DNA of 64,000 bases from Herbaspirillum sp. (GCF_017744395.1 NZ_JAGIBI010000012.1:7766-71765), one strand, 5' to 3'. Positions 2,036 to 10,270 are shown, counted from the stretch's first letter. Translations and numbers: made by a program. Notes: generated from the sequence alone by a model not told the origin.

Positions 2036-2461
2036 TCACTCGCGGATCGCCGCCACCTCGGTCCGCTCCCCCTGCTGCACGATCCTCACCTGCTGGCCGG
2101 GCATGAATCCCTGCTCCGGCGTCGTAACGACGGTGGTGCCGCCGTTACTGGTCCTGACCGTCAGGTCGAACACCTGGCTGAGTTCCTGGTGCCTGCCGAC
2201 CTGGCTGCCGGCCGCCGCACCGGCGACGGCGCCGAGGATGGTCAGGGCGGTTTTCCCGTTGCCCTGCCCGAACTGGTGCCCCACCACGCCACCCGCCAGG
2301 CCGCCCACCGCGGCGCCCGCCAGGTTGGGCCGGTTCACGCTCACCAGGCGCGGCTGCACCGCCACGATCTTGCCGTAGGCGATATACACCGGCTCTTCTT
2401 TCCAACTGGCGCATCCGGCCAGCGATGAGGCGAGCAGGCATGCGGCAATGATGTTTTTCAT
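2036..2461 (-). CDS. glycine-zipper outer membrane lipoprotein (SlyB/Pcp-like)
   Basis: lipobox LAGC, GAAVGGLAGGVVG...LGAVAGAAAG zipper, GQQVRIV C-terminus. Confidence 0.85.
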   Translation of the reverse strand: MKNIIAACLLASSLAGCASWKEEPVYIAYGKIVAVQPRLVSVNRPNLAGAAVGGLAGGVVGHQFGQGNGKTALTILGAVAGAAAGSQVGRHQELSQVFDLTVRTSNGGTTVVTTPEQGFMPGQQVRIVQQGERTEVAAIRE

Positions 2462-2545
2462 GGAACTCCCGATCGGTTCGGACCGACGCTGATGTGAACG
2501 ATGGCCGGCGACGCGGGCCAGGCACAGCCCGCGCCGCCGCGGCCG

Positions 2546-3166
2546 TCAGAAGTTGTATTGCAGACCGAGGCCCAGCATGTAGGCATTGGTATCGGTCGCA
2601 TTGTCATTGGTCTTGGTGATCTTCGGATACCAATCCAGGTTCATGCGCAGATCCAGGTTGGAGGACAACTTGTAGGTGGCGCCGATGCCGAAGGTCGGAT
2701 GCAGTTGGTCGTCGGAGACATGGTAAGTGTCGTCATGCCCCGGCGCGCCGACGCGGTCGACCTTGGTATGCACGAAAGCGGCGCCGGCCTTGCCGGTCAG
2801 GGTAAACGCCTCGTTCAGGGGCAGGTAGCCGACGGCCGACAGCACCAGCGCGGTATTCTGGACCGTCAATTGGCTGACCTCGCCGCTGGTGCCGCGCACC
2901 AGGTCGTAGGTCGGTTTGCCGAAGTCGACGTAGGCCAGTTCGGCGCCGATGTGCTGGTTGAAACGATAGCCCAGCGCCAGCCCCAGGCCCAGCTTGTTGG
3001 TGCTGTCGCTGGTGATCGTGGTGGCGTGCATGGTGTTGGACGTATCGAGCGAGGTATGCGCCTGGCCGAGCGAGGCGGCGACATACAAGCCTTCGTTGGG
3101 CGCGGCCAGCGCCGATGCGGAAGTGGCGATGCAGGCGGCGGCCAGCAGGATGTGTGCAGTTTTCAT
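2546..3166 (-). CDS. OmpA-type 8-stranded outer membrane beta-barrel protein
   Basis: signal peptide, LGYRFN...AELAYVDFG, alternating beta pattern, terminal Phe (LQYNF). Confidence 0.85.
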   Translation of the reverse strand: MKTAHILLAAACIATSASALAAPNEGLYVAASLGQAHTSLDTSNTMHATTITSDSTNKLGLGLALGYRFNQHIGAELAYVDFGKPTYDLVRGTSGEVSQLTVQNTALVLSAVGYLPLNEAFTLTGKAGAAFVHTKVDRVGAPGHDDTYHVSDDQLHPTFGIGATYKLSSNLDLRMNLDWYPKITKTNDNATDTNAYMLGLGLQYNF

Positions 3167-3240
3167 TATCGAGATGCCATAGTAAGTTGAACGGGTATCC
3201 GGTTCGCGGTCAGGTTCCGGAATAGCGAACCTTGCGCGGG

Positions 3241-3278
3241 GACATCCTCCTATTCGTTGGCACCGTCAAAAAGCGGAA
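3241..3278 (-). promoter_or_regulatory. putative ECF promoter A: TTCCGCTTTTT-N11-CGAATAGGAGGATGTC
   Basis: near-identical to the motif at 6920-6957, same spacing; upstream of the OMP gene. Confidence 0.7.
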
Positions 3279-3317
3279 CAAAAAATCGCTTCTTTTTGCA
3301 AATTCCGCGCCAAGGCG

Positions 3318-3707
3318 TCATGGCGCCCGTCCGCATGCCTCGCGCAGCGACGCCACGAGCACCACATCGGGCTCGCGGTTGAGCGCATCGACCACGGCGC
3401 CGGCATTCCCGCCGGCCGGCCTCAGTTCGAACGCTCCATTCTGGTCCGGACCAAAGGCGATGCCGGTATCGAGACGGGCGAGCAGGCCGTTCAGCTTCCC
3501 CAACGGCGCATCTTCAGCGAAGGTCACAAGGATAGGATTGCAGGCCGCTGCACGCCCGCCCCCCGTCTCCGGCCGATACCAATAAGCCAGGGTGGCCAGC
3601 AGCCCGAGCAAGGCCGCCAGCGCCACCACGCACAGCATCGCCTGGGAAGAGAAAAACGATCCCGGCGGCTGCGGCCGGGAAGAAGAGAAAAAATCCTGTC
3701 GGGACAT
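3318..3707 (-). CDS. small single-TM protein whose periplasmic domain is homologous to the anti-sigma C-terminal domain
   Basis: ATG at 3707 with GGAG RBS; one TM segment; gap-free hand alignment 18/65 identical to the C-terminus of 7048-7707. Confidence 0.7.
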   Translation of the reverse strand: MSRQDFFSSSRPQPPGSFFSSQAMLCVVALAALLGLLATLAYWYRPETGGGRAAACNPILVTFAEDAPLGKLNGLLARLDTGIAFGPDQNGAFELRPAGGNAGAVVDALNREPDVVLVASLREACGRAP

Positions 3708-3742
3708 TGCGATGCTCCGGAATAAGTCGCCGTGACGCCGGT

Positions 3743-5089
3743 TTATTTGCCGGGCGCGGCCAGGCCCGGAATGGACTTGAACGACTCCAGCAGCAACTGC
3801 GCGGCCTTTTGCGGATCCTGGGCCGTGCCCAGCCCTTCGCCGGTCAGTTGCGCCAGGTCCAGCAGCGGGCGGCCGTATCCCGAACGGGACGCCACCGACA
3901 GCCATTTGTACGACTGCGCGTAATCCTGCCGCGCATACGCCAGCTCGCCCAGCAGGGTCTGAGCCGGCACATAACCGCGCAGCGCGGCGCGCTCATAGAA
4001 TTTGGCGGCCTGCCCCCGGTTCTTTTCGATGCCCTGCCCGCGATTGCCCGCCTCCAGCAACAGTCCGGCGATGCACAAGTCGCGGTCGGCGGCATTGCCC
4101 TGGCGGGCGCGCGCCATCGCCTGCGCCGCTTCGAAACGGTCCATGCGCGGCACGCCGATTTCCAGGCGGTACATCGTCTCGGCCCATTCGGCGACCGGAG
4201 TGCCGATGTAACGGTCGTCCAGTGGCAGGTCGGCGCGGTAGCTGGTCATGGCCAGGGAGCGTGCCGCGCCGCCGGCCTGCTGGGCCAGTTGCGTTTGCGG
4301 CAAGGCGCGCAGGCTCACCTTGCCCGCCTCCAGCCAGACCTGGCTGCGCAAATCGGAGTAATAACCTGGCGTCTGCTGATGGCCGGTCTGTGCGAAGACC
4401 TGGTCGGACGCGGCGCGGAAGGCATCTTCCAGCCCACGCGCGTGGGAATCGGTGAGTGCCGCCGACAAGGCGGCCGCATACGGGCCATTGCTTTTCTGCG
4501 GCCAGTCCAGCGCCTTGGTATATTCGGCGGTCGAATAAGCCACGAGCGTGCCGTCCCAAGCCTTGGGGACGATCCCCTTGTCGCCGCGTTCCAGCCCGCG
4601 GGTCTGGAACGGATTGTTGCGGCAAGCGTCGATGATGACCACCGAGATGCGCGGCTTGACCTGCGCCAGCATGCCCTTGAGGCGGTCCAGGTCGAAGCCG
4701 GATTTCTTCAGTTCTTCCTGCGAGCGCAGCGACACGTCGGTGCCCAGCAGCAGGCTCTTGCCCTCCAGCGCCGCGCCGTGTCCGGAAAAGAAGAACCAGG
4801 CGACGCCGATCTCGCGGCCCTGGATCTTGCGGATGAAATCGCCGACCGCCTTGTTCAGCCCGACGCCGTTGAGGTTGGTGCACAGTTCGCTGCGCGCCCC
4901 CAGCCGGCCGAAGGTGTCGTGCATGAGTTTGGCGTCGCGCCCGGCGTTGACCAGTTGCGCGGCATCCTTGTAATCGTTGTTGCCGATGGACAGGGCGACC
5001 TGCTCCATGCCCTGCGCCTGCGCCAGAAGCCAGCGCGGCATTCCCGCGCACAGAGCGCCGGCCCCCAGCAAGATGGCGCGGCGCTTCAT
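3743..5089 (-). CDS. caspase-like peptidase C14 with C-terminal Sel1-like repeats and probable Tat signal
   Basis: FFFSGHG and IIDACRNNPF His/Cys dyad; MKRRAILL N-terminus; helical repeats YERAALRGYVPAQTLLG and EGLGTAQDPQKAAQLL. Confidence 0.85.
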   Translation of the reverse strand: MKRRAILLGAGALCAGMPRWLLAQAQGMEQVALSIGNNDYKDAAQLVNAGRDAKLMHDTFGRLGARSELCTNLNGVGLNKAVGDFIRKIQGREIGVAWFFFSGHGAALEGKSLLLGTDVSLRSQEELKKSGFDLDRLKGMLAQVKPRISVVIIDACRNNPFQTRGLERGDKGIVPKAWDGTLVAYSTAEYTKALDWPQKSNGPYAAALSAALTDSHARGLEDAFRAASDQVFAQTGHQQTPGYYSDLRSQVWLEAGKVSLRALPQTQLAQQAGGAARSLAMTSYRADLPLDDRYIGTPVAEWAETMYRLEIGVPRMDRFEAAQAMARARQGNAADRDLCIAGLLLEAGNRGQGIEKNRGQAAKFYERAALRGYVPAQTLLGELAYARQDYAQSYKWLSVASRSGYGRPLLDLAQLTGEGLGTAQDPQKAAQLLLESFKSIPGLAAPGK

Positions 5090-5213
5090 CCGGCCCTCGC
5101 CGCGAACGATTCCAGCTTCATTGTTGTTTGCATTTTCCCTTGGAGCAGTGCCGCCGATTTTGGCAGCAGATTCTACCCGAATCCGCCGGCCCGCCCGCGC
5201 CGCCCCGGCGGTC

Positions 5214-5254
5214 AAAAAAACGGCGATGCCCTCCTGTCGAGCCGGGCATCGCCG
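5214..5254 (-). terminator. intrinsic terminator after the lipoprotein gene
   Basis: CGGCGATGCCC/GGGCATCGCCG stem followed by a U tract on the minus strand. Confidence 0.65.
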
Positions 5255-5264
5255 CCAGGAAAAA

Positions 5265-6008
5265 CTACTGCTGGGCCAGCACATTGCCCTTCTTGTCGCG
5301 CACCGCCACCTTGACGATTTCCGCCTTCACCTGGCGCGATGCCGTATCCGCTTCCTGCGCGAAGCAATAGACCACCAGCTCCAGCGCGTTATAGGTGCCG
5401 CGCAGATGCTCGATATTGCGCGCGACATCCTCGGGGACGTTGGAGAGATAACGGAACGCCTCGCCGTTGGTGAAGCTCAGGTGGTACGCGCTGTTGTCGT
5501 TGAAGTAACGGTACGCGCCGTTTTCCCACACCGAACTGTTGAGGGGGAAACCCTGCTTGTCGAAGTCGTACTTTTGCACCGGGTCGCTGAGCACGATCTT
5601 GAAGTAGCGGTTGGCGCGGGCGGCGGCGACCGAAGCGTCGATCTTCGGCTGCAGGGCCTTGAGCAGGTCGTTCTTCTGGAACTCGTCGCTGGAACGGGCA
5701 TAGTCGGCCGACACATTGCGGGCGATATCGCGGTAGTCGACCGGCATGCCCGCCAGCGCCAGGTAGGAATACATCAGCTGGTTGCCGCTTTCCAGCGCCT
5801 GGTAATTCTCCAGCGGCGTGGATTTGTCGGCCTTCTCGCGGGCATTGGCGATCACCGCCTGCTTGGCGGCTTCGGCCGCCTTGGCCGAGGTCGCATCCGC
5901 CAGTGTCGGCGCGGCGGGCGCATTCGCGGCAGGCGCCGCCTTGTCGTTGCAGCCGGCCAGGCCGGCGATGCTTGCTGCGACAGCCAGCGAATAAAGAATG
6001 TGGCGCAT
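5265..6008 (-). CDS. lipoprotein, DUF4852-like
   Basis: lipobox LAGC, Ala-rich linker, DEFQKNDLL...YDFDKQGFPL pattern recalled from this family (not searched). Confidence 0.7.
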   Translation of the reverse strand: MRHILYSLAVAASIAGLAGCNDKAAPAANAPAAPTLADATSAKAAEAAKQAVIANAREKADKSTPLENYQALESGNQLMYSYLALAGMPVDYRDIARNVSADYARSSDEFQKNDLLKALQPKIDASVAAARANRYFKIVLSDPVQKYDFDKQGFPLNSSVWENGAYRYFNDNSAYHLSFTNGEAFRYLSNVPEDVARNIEHLRGTYNALELVVYCFAQEADTASRQVKAEIVKVAVRDKKGNVLAQQ

Positions 6009-6077
6009 GGGGTTCTCCTTGATCCAGGTAATAAACATTGGGCGATGCATGGTGAAAGGCCGCGGCCGGATGGCCGA

Positions 6078-6878
6078 TCAGGCCCGCGACGACAGGTACT
6101 TGATGGCGCCGCGCCCCGCGAAGTACAGGCTGGCGAGCACGGAAAGGTAGGCGCCCAGGCCGAAGGAGACGGCGCGCAGCGCTTCCTTCATCATCCCCGA
6201 CGCCATTTCGGCCGCCATCGCCGCCGCCTGCCGGCCGCCGAACGCCAGTGCCGCGCCTTGCGCCTGCTTCAGGCCGTCCATGAGGCCGAAATAGCCGATC
6301 GCGCACACCGCCGCGATGAACAGCAACGGCAGCAGGTTGGCCAGGTGCGCCAGCGGGTTGCGCACGAAAAACGGCAGCAGGGGGCCGCACAGCGCCAGCA
6401 CCGCGAACAGGCCATAGGCGCCGCTGCCGCCGCCCGCTCCTCCCAGCGCATTCATGAAGCCGAGCGGGGAATTGAGCACGCCCAGCACTTTCCAGAACGA
6501 CAGCCCGCTGCTGTAGCCGGCCGCGATCTGCACGGTGATCGTGTTGAAGACGAACCAGCCGCACACCAGCGCGGCCATGCCGGCCAGCGTGCCCGCGCCG
6601 AAGCGCGCCACCATCTCCTTGCCCAGCGCCGCGCCCTTGTCCTTGGTCGCGCGCATCGCCGCCTCGGCCTGCTCGCGCGCCAACTGGCTTTCCGGCACGA
6701 CCTGCACCGAGGCCACGCGGCCGTCGGCGCCAAAGCCGACCTCCACCACCATGTTCACGCACGGCGCCACGTCGGATTTCCACATGCCTTCCAGCTCAAA
6801 AGGGAACTGCTGGCCGTCGATCGAGATCAGGCCGGTGCCTGCATTGGTGTCACGCACCACTTTGCCGCGCTTGTTCAT
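6078..6878 (-). CDS. membrane protein: N-terminal OB/cold-shock-like beta domain, helix, about 4 TM segments
   Basis: RGKVVRDTNAGTGLISIDGQQFPF beta-rich start; hydrophobic C-terminal half; GGAG RBS before ATG 6878. Confidence 0.7.
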   Translation of the reverse strand: MNKRGKVVRDTNAGTGLISIDGQQFPFELEGMWKSDVAPCVNMVVEVGFGADGRVASVQVVPESQLAREQAEAAMRATKDKGAALGKEMVARFGAGTLAGMAALVCGWFVFNTITVQIAAGYSSGLSFWKVLGVLNSPLGFMNALGGAGGGSGAYGLFAVLALCGPLLPFFVRNPLAHLANLLPLLFIAAVCAIGYFGLMDGLKQAQGAALAFGGRQAAAMAAEMASGMMKEALRAVSFGLGAYLSVLASLYFAGRGAIKYLSSRA

Positions 6879-6919
6879 ATGCACTCCGTCGTAGGGTTGG
6901 GCGCCCGGGATCGGACGCC

Positions 6920-6957
6920 GACACCCTCCTATTCGAAGCGACGGCGAAAAAGCGGAA
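6920..6957 (-). promoter_or_regulatory. putative ECF promoter B: TTCCGCTTTTT-N11-CGAATAGGAGGGTGTC
   Basis: matches 3241-3278; lies just downstream of a terminator, with an AT-rich upstream tract. Confidence 0.7.
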
Positions 6958-6988
6958 AGGAATTTTTAAATTTATTTTGTGACGCCGG

Positions 6989-7021
6989 AAAATAAAAAAC
7001 CCGACGCACCGACGTCGGGTT
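6989..7021 (-). terminator. intrinsic terminator of the sigma/anti-sigma operon
   Basis: AACCCGACG/CGTCGGGTT stem plus U tract on the minus strand. Confidence 0.7.
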
Positions 7022-7047
7022 CTGTTCTATTGGAATGATCCTGTCGA

Positions 7048-7707
7048 TCAGGGCCGATCCCTGCCGCGCAGATCCATCGCATGCACCTCCGTGACCAGCG
7101 ATGACGCTTGCAGGCGCTGTATCGCCTGCGCCAGCGATCCCTCGGTGACCACCACCTGGTAGGTGCCGTCGGCCGCCGGGCCGCTGCGGATGCGCAGGTG
7201 CATCTCCGCCAATTGCTCGCGCAGGCCGCCCAGCGCGGCATCGTCGCGGAACCTGACCAGCAGCACGCCCTCTTCTCCCTGCCCGGCGGGCTCCACCGCC
7301 CGATAGCCGTCGTCGGGAATGCCGTCGCGCTCGAACAGGTGGCGCGCCTGGAAAGCCGCCGTCACGCACAGCATGACCACCGCGGCCACCGCCCAGCGGC
7401 TGCCGTTGCTGGCCGGGGTCGACACCAGCCGGCGCCACCAGCCGGCCAGGCGGCCGCCGGCCGCGCCGCGCCGCGCCTGTTCGGCCTCCAGCGCCAGGCG
7501 GATCTGTTCGAACGACACCAGCGGCTTGCGCTCCTGCTCCAACCCTTCCCGCGCCAGGCGCACCAGTTCGCGCTCGGCATCGACTTCAGCCTGCAGTTCC
7601 GGATGGCGCGACAGCATGTCCTCCATCCAGGCGGCTTCCTCGGGGTCGAGCTTGTCGCAGGCGAACTGGAAGCAATGCGCCCGGAAACGGTTCAGGTCAT
7701 CGCTCAT
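7048..7707 (-). CDS. anti-sigma factor (cytoplasmic helical domain, TM, periplasmic domain)
   Basis: ATGA overlap with the ECF sigma stop; KLDPEEAAWMEDML N-terminal anti-sigma-like helix; single TM. Confidence 0.8.
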   Translation of the reverse strand: MSDDLNRFRAHCFQFACDKLDPEEAAWMEDMLSRHPELQAEVDAERELVRLAREGLEQERKPLVSFEQIRLALEAEQARRGAAGGRLAGWWRRLVSTPASNGSRWAVAAVVMLCVTAAFQARHLFERDGIPDDGYRAVEPAGQGEEGVLLVRFRDDAALGGLREQLAEMHLRIRSGPAADGTYQVVVTEGSLAQAIQRLQASSLVTEVHAMDLRGRDRP

Positions 7708-8396
7708 TTCATGCCTCCTTTGCCGAGACGCCCCAGCTTCGCGGTAATGCAGCCCTTCATCCGCTCCGCCGCCTTGCGTACCCACTTGCGCACCTGCTCG
7801 TCGTTAAGGTCCTGGTAACGCGGCGATTGCGCCGACAGGATGTCTTTCATCTGCTTGTAGTTCAACTCGTTTTCCAGCGACAGCTTCATCGCCAGGCGGT
7901 AATTCGGCCCCTTTCCCTTGGGCAGGCGCTCGATGCACTGGGCGATGGCCTGTTGCACCTGCTTGGCCTCCAGCTCTTCCTCCGGCCCCGGCAAATTGCA
8001 GGCGAAACCATCCAGGCCTGACAGTTCGCCTTGTTCGTCGTCATCCCTGCCATGCTTCTCGATATCGACGATCTTTTCCTGTTGGCTATAGAACCGGCGC
8101 AATTCGTCGATGGCGCACTGCTCGCCGATCTTCTTGGCCCAGGTCTTCACCGAGGCCAGCTTCGGATCGTAAGTATGCGCGGTCATGAAAATCTTGAGCC
8201 AGGCATTCTGCAACGCAGCCTGCGCCACATCTTCGTTGAACATGACCTGCGTGAGCACATGCCGTTCCAGGCCCTTCACCAGGTATTCATAGAACTCGCG
8301 CTGCGCCGCCTGCACGCCGCGGTCAGCCGGATTCCTGGACGCGAACAGCTTCAGCAGGCGCGCCAGTTCCTCGTTGTTATTCACGTTATCCGCCAC
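7704..8396 (-). CDS. ECF sigma factor (divergent)
   Basis: region 2 LQNAWLKIF...YDPKLASVKTW...AIDELRR; region 4 CIERLP...LNYKQMKDIL; GTG start at 8396 inferred. Confidence 0.85.
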   Translation of the reverse strand: MADNVNNNEELARLLKLFASRNPADRGVQAAQREFYEYLVKGLERHVLTQVMFNEDVAQAALQNAWLKIFMTAHTYDPKLASVKTWAKKIGEQCAIDELRRFYSQQEKIVDIEKHGRDDDEQGELSGLDGFACNLPGPEEELEAKQVQQAIAQCIERLPKGKGPNYRLAMKLSLENELNYKQMKDILSAQSPRYQDLNDEQVRKWVRKAAERMKGCITAKLGRLGKGGMK

Positions 8397-8398
8397 AG

Positions 8399-8842
8399 TC
8401 AGGCTCGGTGATTGTTTTCCCCAAGCGGGGATTGTAAGGCAGATTGCGCAGCAGCAGCGTCTTGCATCGCATCGACGAACAAATGCACCGCGTGCACCAG
8501 CGTATCGCGCGTGCGCACCAGGCAATAGCGCCAGGCGGCGGGATCGGGGAACCACAGCTCGATCAGGAAACTGACCTGGTTCTCGTTCATCACTCCCTTG
8601 ACCAATTTGAGCCGGCAGTTGATGTCGTTGAGCGCGATCAGCGCCTGCTGCGCTTGCGCCGGCGAAACCACCTGCCAGACGTTGGGCAGCAGCAGGCAGC
8701 CGAACTGGGCGTCGCCGGCATCCAGGCACAGCACATAGGAGAGGCCGTTGTGGGTAAAGACGATATCGTCGTCGCCATCCAGGGTCGCAGAAATGCCATC
8801 GGTACGGAATTGCTCCAGCAGAGCGGGAATATGGGGTGTCAT
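8399..8842 (-). CDS. YbjN/CesT-like chaperone-fold protein
   Basis: 147 aa, TLDGDDDIVF...ALNDINCRLKLVK pattern; first gene of the sigma operon. Confidence 0.65.
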   Translation of the reverse strand: MTPHIPALLEQFRTDGISATLDGDDDIVFTHNGLSYVLCLDAGDAQFGCLLLPNVWQVVSPAQAQQALIALNDINCRLKLVKGVMNENQVSFLIELWFPDPAAWRYCLVRTRDTLVHAVHLFVDAMQDAAAAQSALQSPLGENNHRA

Positions 8843-8895
8843 CGGAAACCTGTCGCGTTGGTGCGGCTGCCGCACCATGCGGCAGCTCACCATTG

Positions 8896-8925
8896 CCTAT
8901 TCGAAGCGAACAGCGATTTCCGGAC
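8896..8925 (-). promoter_or_regulatory. putative ECF promoter C (autoregulatory): GTCCGG...CGAATAGG
   Basis: TCCG-N17-CGAATAGG as in A and B; shares CCTATTCGAAGCGA (plus strand) with B. Confidence 0.62.
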
Positions 8926-8933
8926 CGCTAAAT

Positions 8934-10013
8934 TCAATATTTCGTATCGCCCGCCGAAAAAAACGGTCCCGACGGCCGATTTCCCCATTCCAGTTCCGAT
9001 TCCGCCACGCCCGGCACGCCCTGCCTGATCGCCGTCGAATAGTCATCCCCCGCCCGCACCGCCAGGGCGCGCTGCGTGATGCGGCCGGCGGCCTTGAGTT
9101 GCTCGAAGGAATAACCCGGCACCAGGCCGCCGTGGTCGTAGGCATATCCGGCGAAATATCCCGACAGCAGCAGCCGGTAGTCCAGCGGCAGCAGCGGCGA
9201 CAGCCGGCGCGCCAGCCCGAACACGATGGTGGTGCAATTGCTGGTGAGCGTGTTGTAGAAACGGGGAGCGGCCTGCAGCTGGGCGGCCCGCTCCAGGTAG
9301 CCGAGGAACACCTTGCGCAACTGTTCGGGACGCAGCCGCAGCCGGTACAAATAGACGTCTTCGCCACGCGCATTGGTGCGGGTGCGCAGGATGTCGTTCT
9401 CGTCGGCCGCCACGATGACCGTCTCGAAGCGGCGGAAGAAACCGCCGATGGCGGAAAAGTTCTCGCCTTTCTCGCGCCGGATTTCCAGCGAGAACACCAG
9501 GCGCCGGCCGTCGTCGAAGCCGAACGAGACCAGCGTATGCGCGATCGCCGGCCCCATCCAGTAAGACAGGACCAGGTCGGCCGAGGCCAGGCGCGCCAGG
9601 TCGTAACGGCGCGTTTCCCACCGCGCGTCGTAATCGGTCTCGCTGCGCCAGGCGAAGTTGCGCACATTGGCCAGCGTCACCTGGCCGCCCTGCACCTGCG
9701 CCTCCAGCAGGCGCGCGACATCGTCGGCCCATACCCGCCCATGCGACGGCCGGATGGTATGCCACCACGCCAGCAGCGCCACGGCAGCCGACAGGAACGC
9801 CGCCAGCCACCAGAACCCGCCGGCGCCGGCCATCCCCGCCAGCGCAACCGATGCCGCCAGCGCCAGCGACGACCAGGCGGCTATCGCCGCATTGCGCGCC
9901 CACGGCGGCGCCGGTAACTGGAACCACAGCGCGCACGCGCCCCAGGCGGCCAGGCCGGCCAGCGGCAGCAGCAACGGCCAGCGCAGCCACAATAAGGAAG
10001 TCAGAACCGCCAT
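8934..10013 (-). CDS. DUF4105 / Lnb N-terminal-like membrane protein
   Basis: N-terminal TMs, NVRNFAWR, AIAHTLVSFGF, FYNTLTSNCTT. Confidence 0.8.
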   Translation of the reverse strand: MAVLTSLLWLRWPLLLPLAGLAAWGACALWFQLPAPPWARNAAIAAWSSLALAASVALAGMAGAGGFWWLAAFLSAAVALLAWWHTIRPSHGRVWADDVARLLEAQVQGGQVTLANVRNFAWRSETDYDARWETRRYDLARLASADLVLSYWMGPAIAHTLVSFGFDDGRRLVFSLEIRREKGENFSAIGGFFRRFETVIVAADENDILRTRTNARGEDVYLYRLRLRPEQLRKVFLGYLERAAQLQAAPRFYNTLTSNCTTIVFGLARRLSPLLPLDYRLLLSGYFAGYAYDHGGLVPGYSFEQLKAAGRITQRALAVRAGDDYSTAIRQGVPGVAESELEWGNRPSGPFFSAGDTKY

Positions 10014-10270
10014 CTGGAAATCACGCCGCAAAGAAAGGAAAGGCGCGCCGGATTCCCGAGTTTCCGGCGCCAAGCGGCATTGTAGCCGCCTGGCTCATCC
10101 GTGTTGCGGCGGATATATCCATGGCAGGGATCGCCCGGGGCCGGCAACGTCTCCGGGCTGTTTTGCATCGGCCATCCGGAATAACGATATGACAAATCAT
10201 TCCTTGGCCGGCTTGGGCGTTCGCGCTAGCGTCTCGGAACATTCTTCCCAACAACGATGAGCGAGACACC

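Follow-up and report, generated by a model that had tools for sequence, protein, structure and literature searches.

A candidate autoregulated ECF sigma factor promoter and its local envelope regulon in Herbaspirillum sp.

Can the promoter sequence of an uncharacterised sigma factor, together with the set of genes it serves, be read from a single stretch of genome? A gene cluster of Herbaspirillum sp. raises this question, as it combines a divergent extracytoplasmic function (ECF) sigma factor gene with three copies of a bipartite sequence motif. The sequence-only reading of this DNA had taken the motif to be an autoregulated ECF-type promoter that drives a self-contained envelope and caspase cluster. 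We analysed the cluster in a 64,000-nt window (C3:7766-71765 of a 4.32 Mb assembly, with all positions below numbered from the start of the window) and in orthologous loci. The earlier interpretation is partly supported: its promoter and regulon assignments hold up, its claim that the motif drives the caspase gene is wrong for this genome and the regulon seen here is an incomplete version of the ancestral one. Based on comparison of sequences, it is highly probable that the three sites (P1, P2 and P3) are promoters read by the ECF sigma encoded at 7704-8384, which would amplify its own expression via P1 and switch on P2 and P3.

A two-block motif confined to one gene cluster

The pattern TCCG-N17-CGAATAGG was found three times on the minus strand of the window, as TCCGGAAATCGCTGTTCGCTTCGAATAGG at 8896-8924 (P1), TCCGCTTTTTCGCCGTCGCTTCGAATAGG at 6928-6956 (P2) and TCCGCTTTTTGACGGTGCCAACGAATAGG at 3249-3277 (P3). 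All three copies lie where the sequence-only reading had put them, with the same spacing, differing spacers and A/T-rich tracts upstream, and an extended form, TTCCGCTTTTT-N11-CGAATAGGAGGRTGTC, fits only P2 and P3. Shuffling the window 100 times with dinucleotides preserved gave an expected count of 0.00 for the pattern and a maximum of 0, and in the whole assembly it occurs exactly three times, with every copy inside the cluster. We also scanned the genome using a position-weight matrix (PWM) derived from the orthologous sites and found no site outside the cluster that retains both cores; locally shuffled genomes contained 0-1 sites with a score of at least 20 (scores of the three copies are given in Table 1). 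The top match outside the cluster (C4:106821-106849) was rejected as a textbook sigma-28 promoter, TAAGTTT-N11-GCCGTAAA, before a motA-like gene. A site between secG and nuoA/tRNA (C4:31951) was rejected as a regulon member with the core TGCG, and the remaining candidates were intragenic or had a broken core. The motif in this genome is real, non-random and confined to the cluster, and the description of the regulon as self-contained holds for this genome under both the pattern search and the matrix scan.

Lack of conservation in orthologous loci had been named as grounds for abandoning the proposal. We compared loci (numbered L004 onwards) from isolates, including Herbaspirillum lusitanum, H. 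autotrophicum and an Undibacterium, from other genera of the family and from metagenome contigs. A two-block motif, tT-TCCG-n-TTTt ... CGAAyA-gg, with fixed spacing and a variable spacer, is kept before the same operons in ~20 of these loci, down to 38-40% sigma identity, and it was present wherever this sigma gene was. The exact pattern TCCG-N17-CGAATA was present at 20 sites in the first 11 loci (~240 kb), all directed at downstream genes, where an estimate from base composition gives well under one. Conservation extends beyond the search pattern to T at -1 and -2, TTTT at +5 to +8, GG after the -10 block and the A/T-rich upstream tract. Sorted by class, the 36 sites stand before ybjN/sigma in nearly every locus, before the gene of a 266-aa membrane protein (mem266) and its DUF4852 partner in 11 non-redundant loci, before the outer-membrane protein (OMP) pair in the window, L008 and L010, before an operon encoding a 303-aa protein, a 521-aa protein and GDPD in five loci and before a few lineage-specific genes. 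Throughout, the 17-nt spacing is fixed, the orientation is strict and the sites lie 50-150 nt ahead of start codons. A site at the P1 position is kept in L004, L005, L007, L008, L009, L011, L012, L019, L021, L023, L038 and L039, including the five loci in which sigma identity is 38-50% (L019, L021, L023, L038 and L039). The motif also moves with its genes, as seen from the OMP pair, which is inverted in L008, and from ybjN, which is on the opposite strand in Undibacterium (L006).

Within the genus, the stricter pattern TCCGBTTTN13CGAAYA gave 2-3 matches per sigma-bearing genome, with 2-3 clustered at the sigma locus and, in one genome (G023), one extra match away from it. The 41 genus genomes without this sigma type contained 11 scattered matches in total and no clustered motifs, and a reversed-pattern control gave 7 matches in 44 genomes. 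Cross-locus comparison and co-occurrence with the sigma gene in the genus strongly support the proposed bipartite, autoregulated ECF-type promoter.

By family score and fold, the product of 7704-8384 is an ECF sigma factor. It matched the TIGR02937 sigma70-ECF model over residues 34-210 (47.4 bits, cut-off 42.9) and Pfam Sigma70_r2 (26 bits, cut-off 24), with no Pfam match to region 4. An AlphaFold2 model (13 orthologs, pLDDT 73) contains two helical domains and a disordered linker (residues 107-129), and its top Foldseek matches are ECF sigmas (SigK, SigW, sigmaE, AlgU, RpoE and CnrH).

In the mechanism that we propose, TTCCGy and the T tract after it would form the -35 element and CGAATA the -10 element, with transcription starts expected 6-9 nt after CGAATA, near a conserved GGAGGRTGTC block. 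Classical ECF promoters of the SigW type read TGAAAC-N16-CGTA, and the motif described here (TTCCGC-N16-CGAATA) has the same geometry. P1 would drive ybjN, sigma and anti-sigma, amounting to positive autoregulation, while P2 would serve mem266 and the DUF4852 lipoprotein and P3 the OmpA-like barrel and the glycine-zipper lipoprotein. The sigma would be held by its co-translated, single-pass anti-sigma until a periplasmic signal frees it.

Transcription units and the place of the caspase

Table 1 Genes, predicted promoters and RNA elements of the cluster (window positions)
Feature	Position	Strand	Evidence or description
P1, predicted autoregulatory promoter of ybjN-sigma-anti-sigma	8896-8924	-	TCCG-N17-CGAATAGG, PWM 20.1
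Stem-loop GCUGCCGCA-UGG-UGCGGCAGC, predicted 5' end of P1 transcript	8866-8886	-	-26.3 kcal/mol, z = -3.3
YbjN-like cytoplasmic protein, 147 aa, first gene of sigma operon	8399-8842	-	Pfam YbjN E = 0.0044, 17.7 bits, below cut-off
Divergent ECF sigma factor, 226 aa	7704-8384	-	Sigma70_r2 and TIGR02937 above cut-off
Single-pass anti-sigma, 219 aa, periplasmic domain ~90 aa	7048-7707	-	Weak NCBIfam anti-sigma match, 29.9 bits, below cut-off
Intrinsic terminator closing sigma operon	6996-7023	-	-18 kcal/mol, z = -4.5, then U tract
P2, predicted promoter before mem266-DUF4852	6920-6957	-	TTCCGCTTTTT-N11-CGAATAGGAGGGTGTC, A/T-rich upstream tract, PWM 37.1
mem266, 266-aa membrane protein without Pfam family	6078-6878	-	N-terminal beta domain, then glycine-rich transmembrane helices
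DUF4852 lipoprotein, lipobox LAGC	5265-6008	-	Pfam DUF4852, 30.8 bits
Intrinsic terminator at boundary of P2 operon and caspase gene	5212-5256	-	-27 kcal/mol, z = -3.6, 13-bp stem then U7
TAGAAT, sigma-70-type -10-like element of caspase operon	5170-5175	-	TAnAAT invariant in 7 aligned loci
Upstream open reading frame, 11 codons (MKLESFAARAG), TGA overlapping caspase ATG (ATGA)	5086-5121	-
Exported C14 caspase-like protease, RR leader, C-terminal Sel1 repeat region	3743-5089	-	Peptidase_C14 99.5 bits, Sel1 32.7 bits
129-aa single-pass membrane protein	3318-3707	-	Periplasmic domain paralogous to anti-sigma sensor domain
P3, predicted promoter before OMP-glycine zipper pair	3241-3278	-	TTCCGCTTTTT-N11-CGAATAGGAGGATGTC, PWM 34.8
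OmpA-like 8-stranded outer-membrane beta-barrel, 206 aa	2546-3166	-	OmpA_membrane 78.8 bits, OMP_b-brl 66.9 bits
Glycine-zipper lipoprotein, 17-kDa-antigen / SlyB-like, lipobox LAGC	2036-2461	-	Rick_17kDa_Anti 31.8, PRK11280 51 bits

The gene assignments of the sequence-only reading are borne out (Table 1). The cluster comprises four transcription units (ybjN-sigma-anti-sigma, mem266-DUF4852, the caspase gene with that of the small membrane protein, and the OMP gene with that of the glycine-zipper lipoprotein), of which the first two are delimited as separate units by the terminators after the anti-sigma and DUF4852 genes. The idea that the motif drives the whole envelope and caspase cluster stands for the envelope operons but fails for the caspase operon, which carries no motif, lies behind the stronger of the two terminators and has its own TAnAAT element (TACAAT in relatives, corresponding to TAGAAT in the window). 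More likely, a sigma-70-type promoter of its own serves the caspase operon, which would act as part of the input to the switch rather than as one of its outputs.

The caspase operon might nonetheless be a further target of the sigma in this genome, reached by read-through from P2 or through a degenerate site, with the motif still being the sigma's promoter. This would fit a locus without mem266 and DUF4852 (L010), where the full motif stands immediately upstream of the caspase gene, as well as the Undibacterium locus (L006), where the sigma, anti-sigma and caspase genes form a single overlapping operon; moreover, terminators are seldom 100% efficient. In the window, however, a 13-bp stem and U7 separate the DUF4852 gene from the caspase gene, the intergenic region contains no ECF motif at a PWM score of at least 14 and TAnAAT is invariant at its position in seven loci, so we regard a sigma-driven caspase operon as unlikely here. 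Control of the caspase by translational coupling or by a leader peptide is suggested by the upstream open reading frame, which in 6 of 7 loci retains its ATG at a distance of 32 nt from the caspase start.

The Peptidase_C14 match spans residues 30-250 of the caspase, and its catalytic motifs, SGHG and IDACRN (a predicted His-Cys dyad), were read in the translation. Every full-length Oxalobacteraceae-type sigma locus (the window and L004-L013) includes a caspase gene; some divergent loci (L027-L031) lack it. The gene of the 129-aa protein follows that of the caspase even where the sigma is missing, and in most relatives a SulP-like transporter gene, lost from the genome of the window, comes next. 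This trio of caspase-Sel1, small membrane protein and SulP-like transporter was found without sigma and anti-sigma in other Burkholderiales contigs (L014 8001-11232 and L016 8001-11323). The anti-sigma and the 129-aa protein have homologous periplasmic domains, C-terminal in the anti-sigma (BLASTP E = 4e-6; hhalign 97.4%, E = 1.6e-11). The sigma-free trio, the reduced cluster, this domain homology and the operon overlap in Undibacterium together suggest that the protease module lies upstream of the switch rather than among its outputs.

These relationships allow a more specific proposal, which we put forward tentatively and consider improbable as it stands: the sigma switch could be an add-on that reads an older periplasmic module (C14 caspase-Sel1, small protein and SulP-like transporter), with the free-standing periplasmic caspase providing the site-1 step that releases the sigma. 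In this scheme the periplasmic domain of the small protein would have been copied into the anti-sigma, so that the protease, or whatever acts on that domain, might cut or capture the anti-sigma; the released sigma would then switch on the membrane-protein/lipoprotein pair and the OMP/glycine-zipper pair. A reading of the cluster as a defence island, raised by STAND and SLATT neighbours in L013, was rejected, as PADLOC gives a weak generic caspase match alone and other loci lack a defence context.

Regulon members and competing explanations for the motif

Among the predicted targets, mem266 belongs to a family of 110 clusters in which every name is 'hypothetical'. The sequence-only reading had called it an OB-fold protein, a label that is loosely supported: in its structural model five strands make up an N-terminal beta domain at pLDDT ~75, the rest is of low confidence and the mean pLDDT is 51.8. 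Stand-alone copies of the mem266 family occur in Terriglobales. In Janthinobacterium sp. (L036 5962-9804), a mem266 homolog is divergent from a different ECF/anti-sigma/C14/TPR-CHAT set, made up of another ECF sigma, a 209-aa protein, a C14 peptidase and a TPR-CHAT protein of 1071 aa, with an M61 peptidase also present; the region upstream of this homolog reads AACC-N16-CGAACAagaggg, with a -10 like that of the window and a different -35. The DUF4852 gene always follows mem266, and the gene of the glycine-zipper lipoprotein is always paired with the OMP gene.

How much of the regulon can be read from the window is a separate matter. Three operons with a conserved motif are present, but they form a cut-down set: the 303-aa, 521-aa and GDPD genes, which make up a fourth motif-driven operon in relatives, are missing here, as are the divergent zinc-ribbon/MG2-like operon and the SulP-like gene. 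In H. lusitanum (L004 16848-20479), a second YbjN-like gene with the motif before it closes the cluster, and IS3-type transposase open reading frames and a phage-type integrase come after it. These mobile-element genes, along with a scattered occurrence in few members of the family (6 of 401 genomes), suggest that the cluster is accessory and possibly mobile. Upstream of the cluster, the minus-strand gene at 8934-10073 encodes an Lnb_N (DUF4105) domain protein and is probably outside the system because it stands beside the cluster in no other locus.

The P1 transcript has features of its own. Directly after the P1 -10, the stem-loop at its predicted 5' end is conserved in 7 loci (the window, L004, L005, L007, L008, L009 and L011), with compensatory changes at 3 pairs, and may be a 5' stabiliser or a regulatory element. 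Remoter loci carry other hairpins at this place. A search of the leaders for known RNA families found none at threshold, with a 24-bit Leu_leader match corresponding to the terminator itself. The ybjN ortholog is upstream of the sigma gene in most loci.

Several points weigh against assigning the three sites to the sigma. The -35 core, CCG/TCCG, lacks the AAC of most ECF -35 elements, and the two blocks are allotted to sigma4 and sigma2 by geometry alone. P1 scores far below P2 and P3 (20.1 compared with 35-37), and its -35 flank is weaker, reading TCCGGAAAT where the others have TCCGyTTTT. In one clade (L013 and L025-L031), TCCA replaces TCCG and few sites can be detected. The core positions of the 36-site consensus are circular, the sites having been picked by the motif, and related loci are non-independent samples. 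An apparent co-variation of TCCA with the sigma4 recognition helix (NLE..WIRR compared with NAE..WVRQ/K) was discarded as evidence because it reflects one phylogenetic split.

Given these points, the two-block sequence could instead be the operator or promoter of some other factor that travels with the cluster, either a DNA-binding activator or an alternative sigma recognising a CGAAyA-type -10. Such an explanation draws on the Janthinobacterium locus, where a CGAAyA-like -10 beside a different, more canonical ECF sigma indicates that -10 elements of this kind can belong to other sigmas. However, sigma and anti-sigma are the sole regulatory genes found throughout the loci, with no further DNA-binding protein conserved among them; the fixed spacing, strict orientation, placement before start codons and copy before the sigma operon are what an autoregulated ECF sigma predicts; and the clustering of motifs is confined to genus genomes that have the sigma. 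We consider another factor very unlikely. That P2 and P3, with P1 as a looser match, resemble one another as a relic of local intergenic duplication or by chance, without shared regulation, is scarcely credible: P2 and P3 do share a 3' block (CGAATAGGAGGRTGTC) longer than a -10 needs, but the shuffles gave zero matches and the rest of the genome none, the spacers are wholly different while both blocks are held, and the pattern is kept at orthologous positions across 38-88% sigma identity, which requires selection. Recognition of all three sites by the sigma of the cluster is the explanation that we retain.

A rare sigma family and its closest described relatives

Autoregulated ECF sigma/anti-sigma pairs that control envelope genes are a known kind of system, of which the sigma family described here is a rare and new member. 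Only 16 of 1.84 billion representative proteins matched the sigma at E <= 1e-30, with the next scores below 54 bits, and a word-indexed search returned 13 clusters. The best PDB profile match reached 24.5 bits, and scores against NCBIfam equivalogs all fell well short of their cut-offs. The distribution is patchy, with the sigma present in 4 of 44 genomes of the genus and in 6 of 401 genomes of the family, representing 5 of 64 genera. Three cysteines (C90, C150 and C212) are invariant and a fourth (C129) nearly so among 22 sequences, down to 25% identity. Region 2.4 and the linker hold one each and the two ends of sigma4 the other two, an arrangement that might bind a metal or act as a redox switch; SigK, the top structural match, is described as sensing oxidative stress through a disulphide (PMC7826278). 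The main text of the same classification paper (ECF classification 2.0, Casas-Pastor et al. 2021; PMC7826278) has no mention of caspase, YbjN, Sel1 or TCCG.

The anti-sigma gene begins 4 nt before the sigma stop, is conserved immediately downstream of the sigma gene in all loci and encodes a protein with one hydrophobic span. A zinc anti-sigma (ZAS) reading of its N-terminus was rejected, as no Cys or His is invariant in the first 60 residues among 9 orthologs and the L010 protein lacks all of the N-terminal cysteines.

The classical autoregulated ECF/anti-sigma pairs with envelope regulons are sigmaE-RseA of E. coli and SigW-RsiW of B. subtilis. The system described here resembles them in its two-domain sigma2/sigma4 protein, in a membrane anti-sigma gene that overlaps directly downstream, in a predicted -35 hexamer, N16 and a -10 starting with CG before its own operon and in its predicted envelope targets (OMP and lipoproteins). 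It differs in its remote sequence, its conserved cysteines and its -35 core, TCCG rather than GGAAC or TGAAAC, and by our reading of the alignment the turn ahead of the recognition helix in the sigma4 helix-turn-helix is longer. The predicted regulon consists of only three promoters, all adjoining the sigma gene, and no DegS- or PrsW-type site-1 protease is encoded near the cluster.

A divergent, uncharacterised ECF family gains a concrete predicted recognition sequence, TTCCGy-N16-CGAAyA, and a testable regulon of three to four operons. The unusual -35 core (TCCG, not AAC) and the longer sigma4 turn make sigma and promoter a candidate orthogonal pair for synthetic circuits, and the sigma is a useful case for how sigma4 variants alter -35 specificity. 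For mem266, DUF4852 and the 303-aa and 521-aa proteins, which have no known function, a common regulator would be a first handle. Homology of the anti-sigma sensor domain to the caspase's partner protein yields a specific, falsifiable hypothesis on the role of bacterial periplasmic caspases.

Literature searches on ECF sigmas with caspases, Herbaspirillum ECFs and orthocaspases in the periplasm yielded no account of this set of genes. Among described systems that have a caspase-fold component in the periplasm, DdvS/DdvA of Myxococcus xanthus comes nearest; it comprises an ECF sigma, a single-pass anti-sigma and a periplasmic caspase-fold protease with helical repeats (PMC6061681, PMC11506125). 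Its local regulon has several sigma-dependent promoters (P1-P4), and protease-initiated regulated intramembrane proteolysis has been proposed for it and is unproven (PMC6061681, PMC11506125). Both systems combine an ECF sigma and a single-pass anti-sigma with an associated caspase-fold protease carrying repeats and with a local, multi-promoter regulon, a predicted one in the cluster described here. In DdvA, however, a TPR-CHAT portion of ~900 residues is fused to the anti-sigma, whereas the anti-sigma described here has 219 aa with ~90 periplasmic residues and no protease domain, and the C14 protease, with its Sel1 repeat region, is encoded by a gene of its own that has a separate predicted promoter. 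The N-terminus of DdvA has a CHCC (HxxxCxxC) zinc motif, whereas the anti-sigma of the cluster has no conserved N-terminal cysteines. The targets differ as well, with CBASS and CRISPR-Cas (antiviral) under DdvS and predicted envelope targets here, and PADLOC identified no defence genes. A second point of comparison is ECF54, which is described as having no anti-sigma and is proposed to be controlled by proteases encoded nearby, CHAT-domain proteins among them (PMC8999054). As in ECF54, a caspase-superfamily protease is conserved in the context of the ECF sigma; the anti-sigma, always present here, sets the two apart by description.

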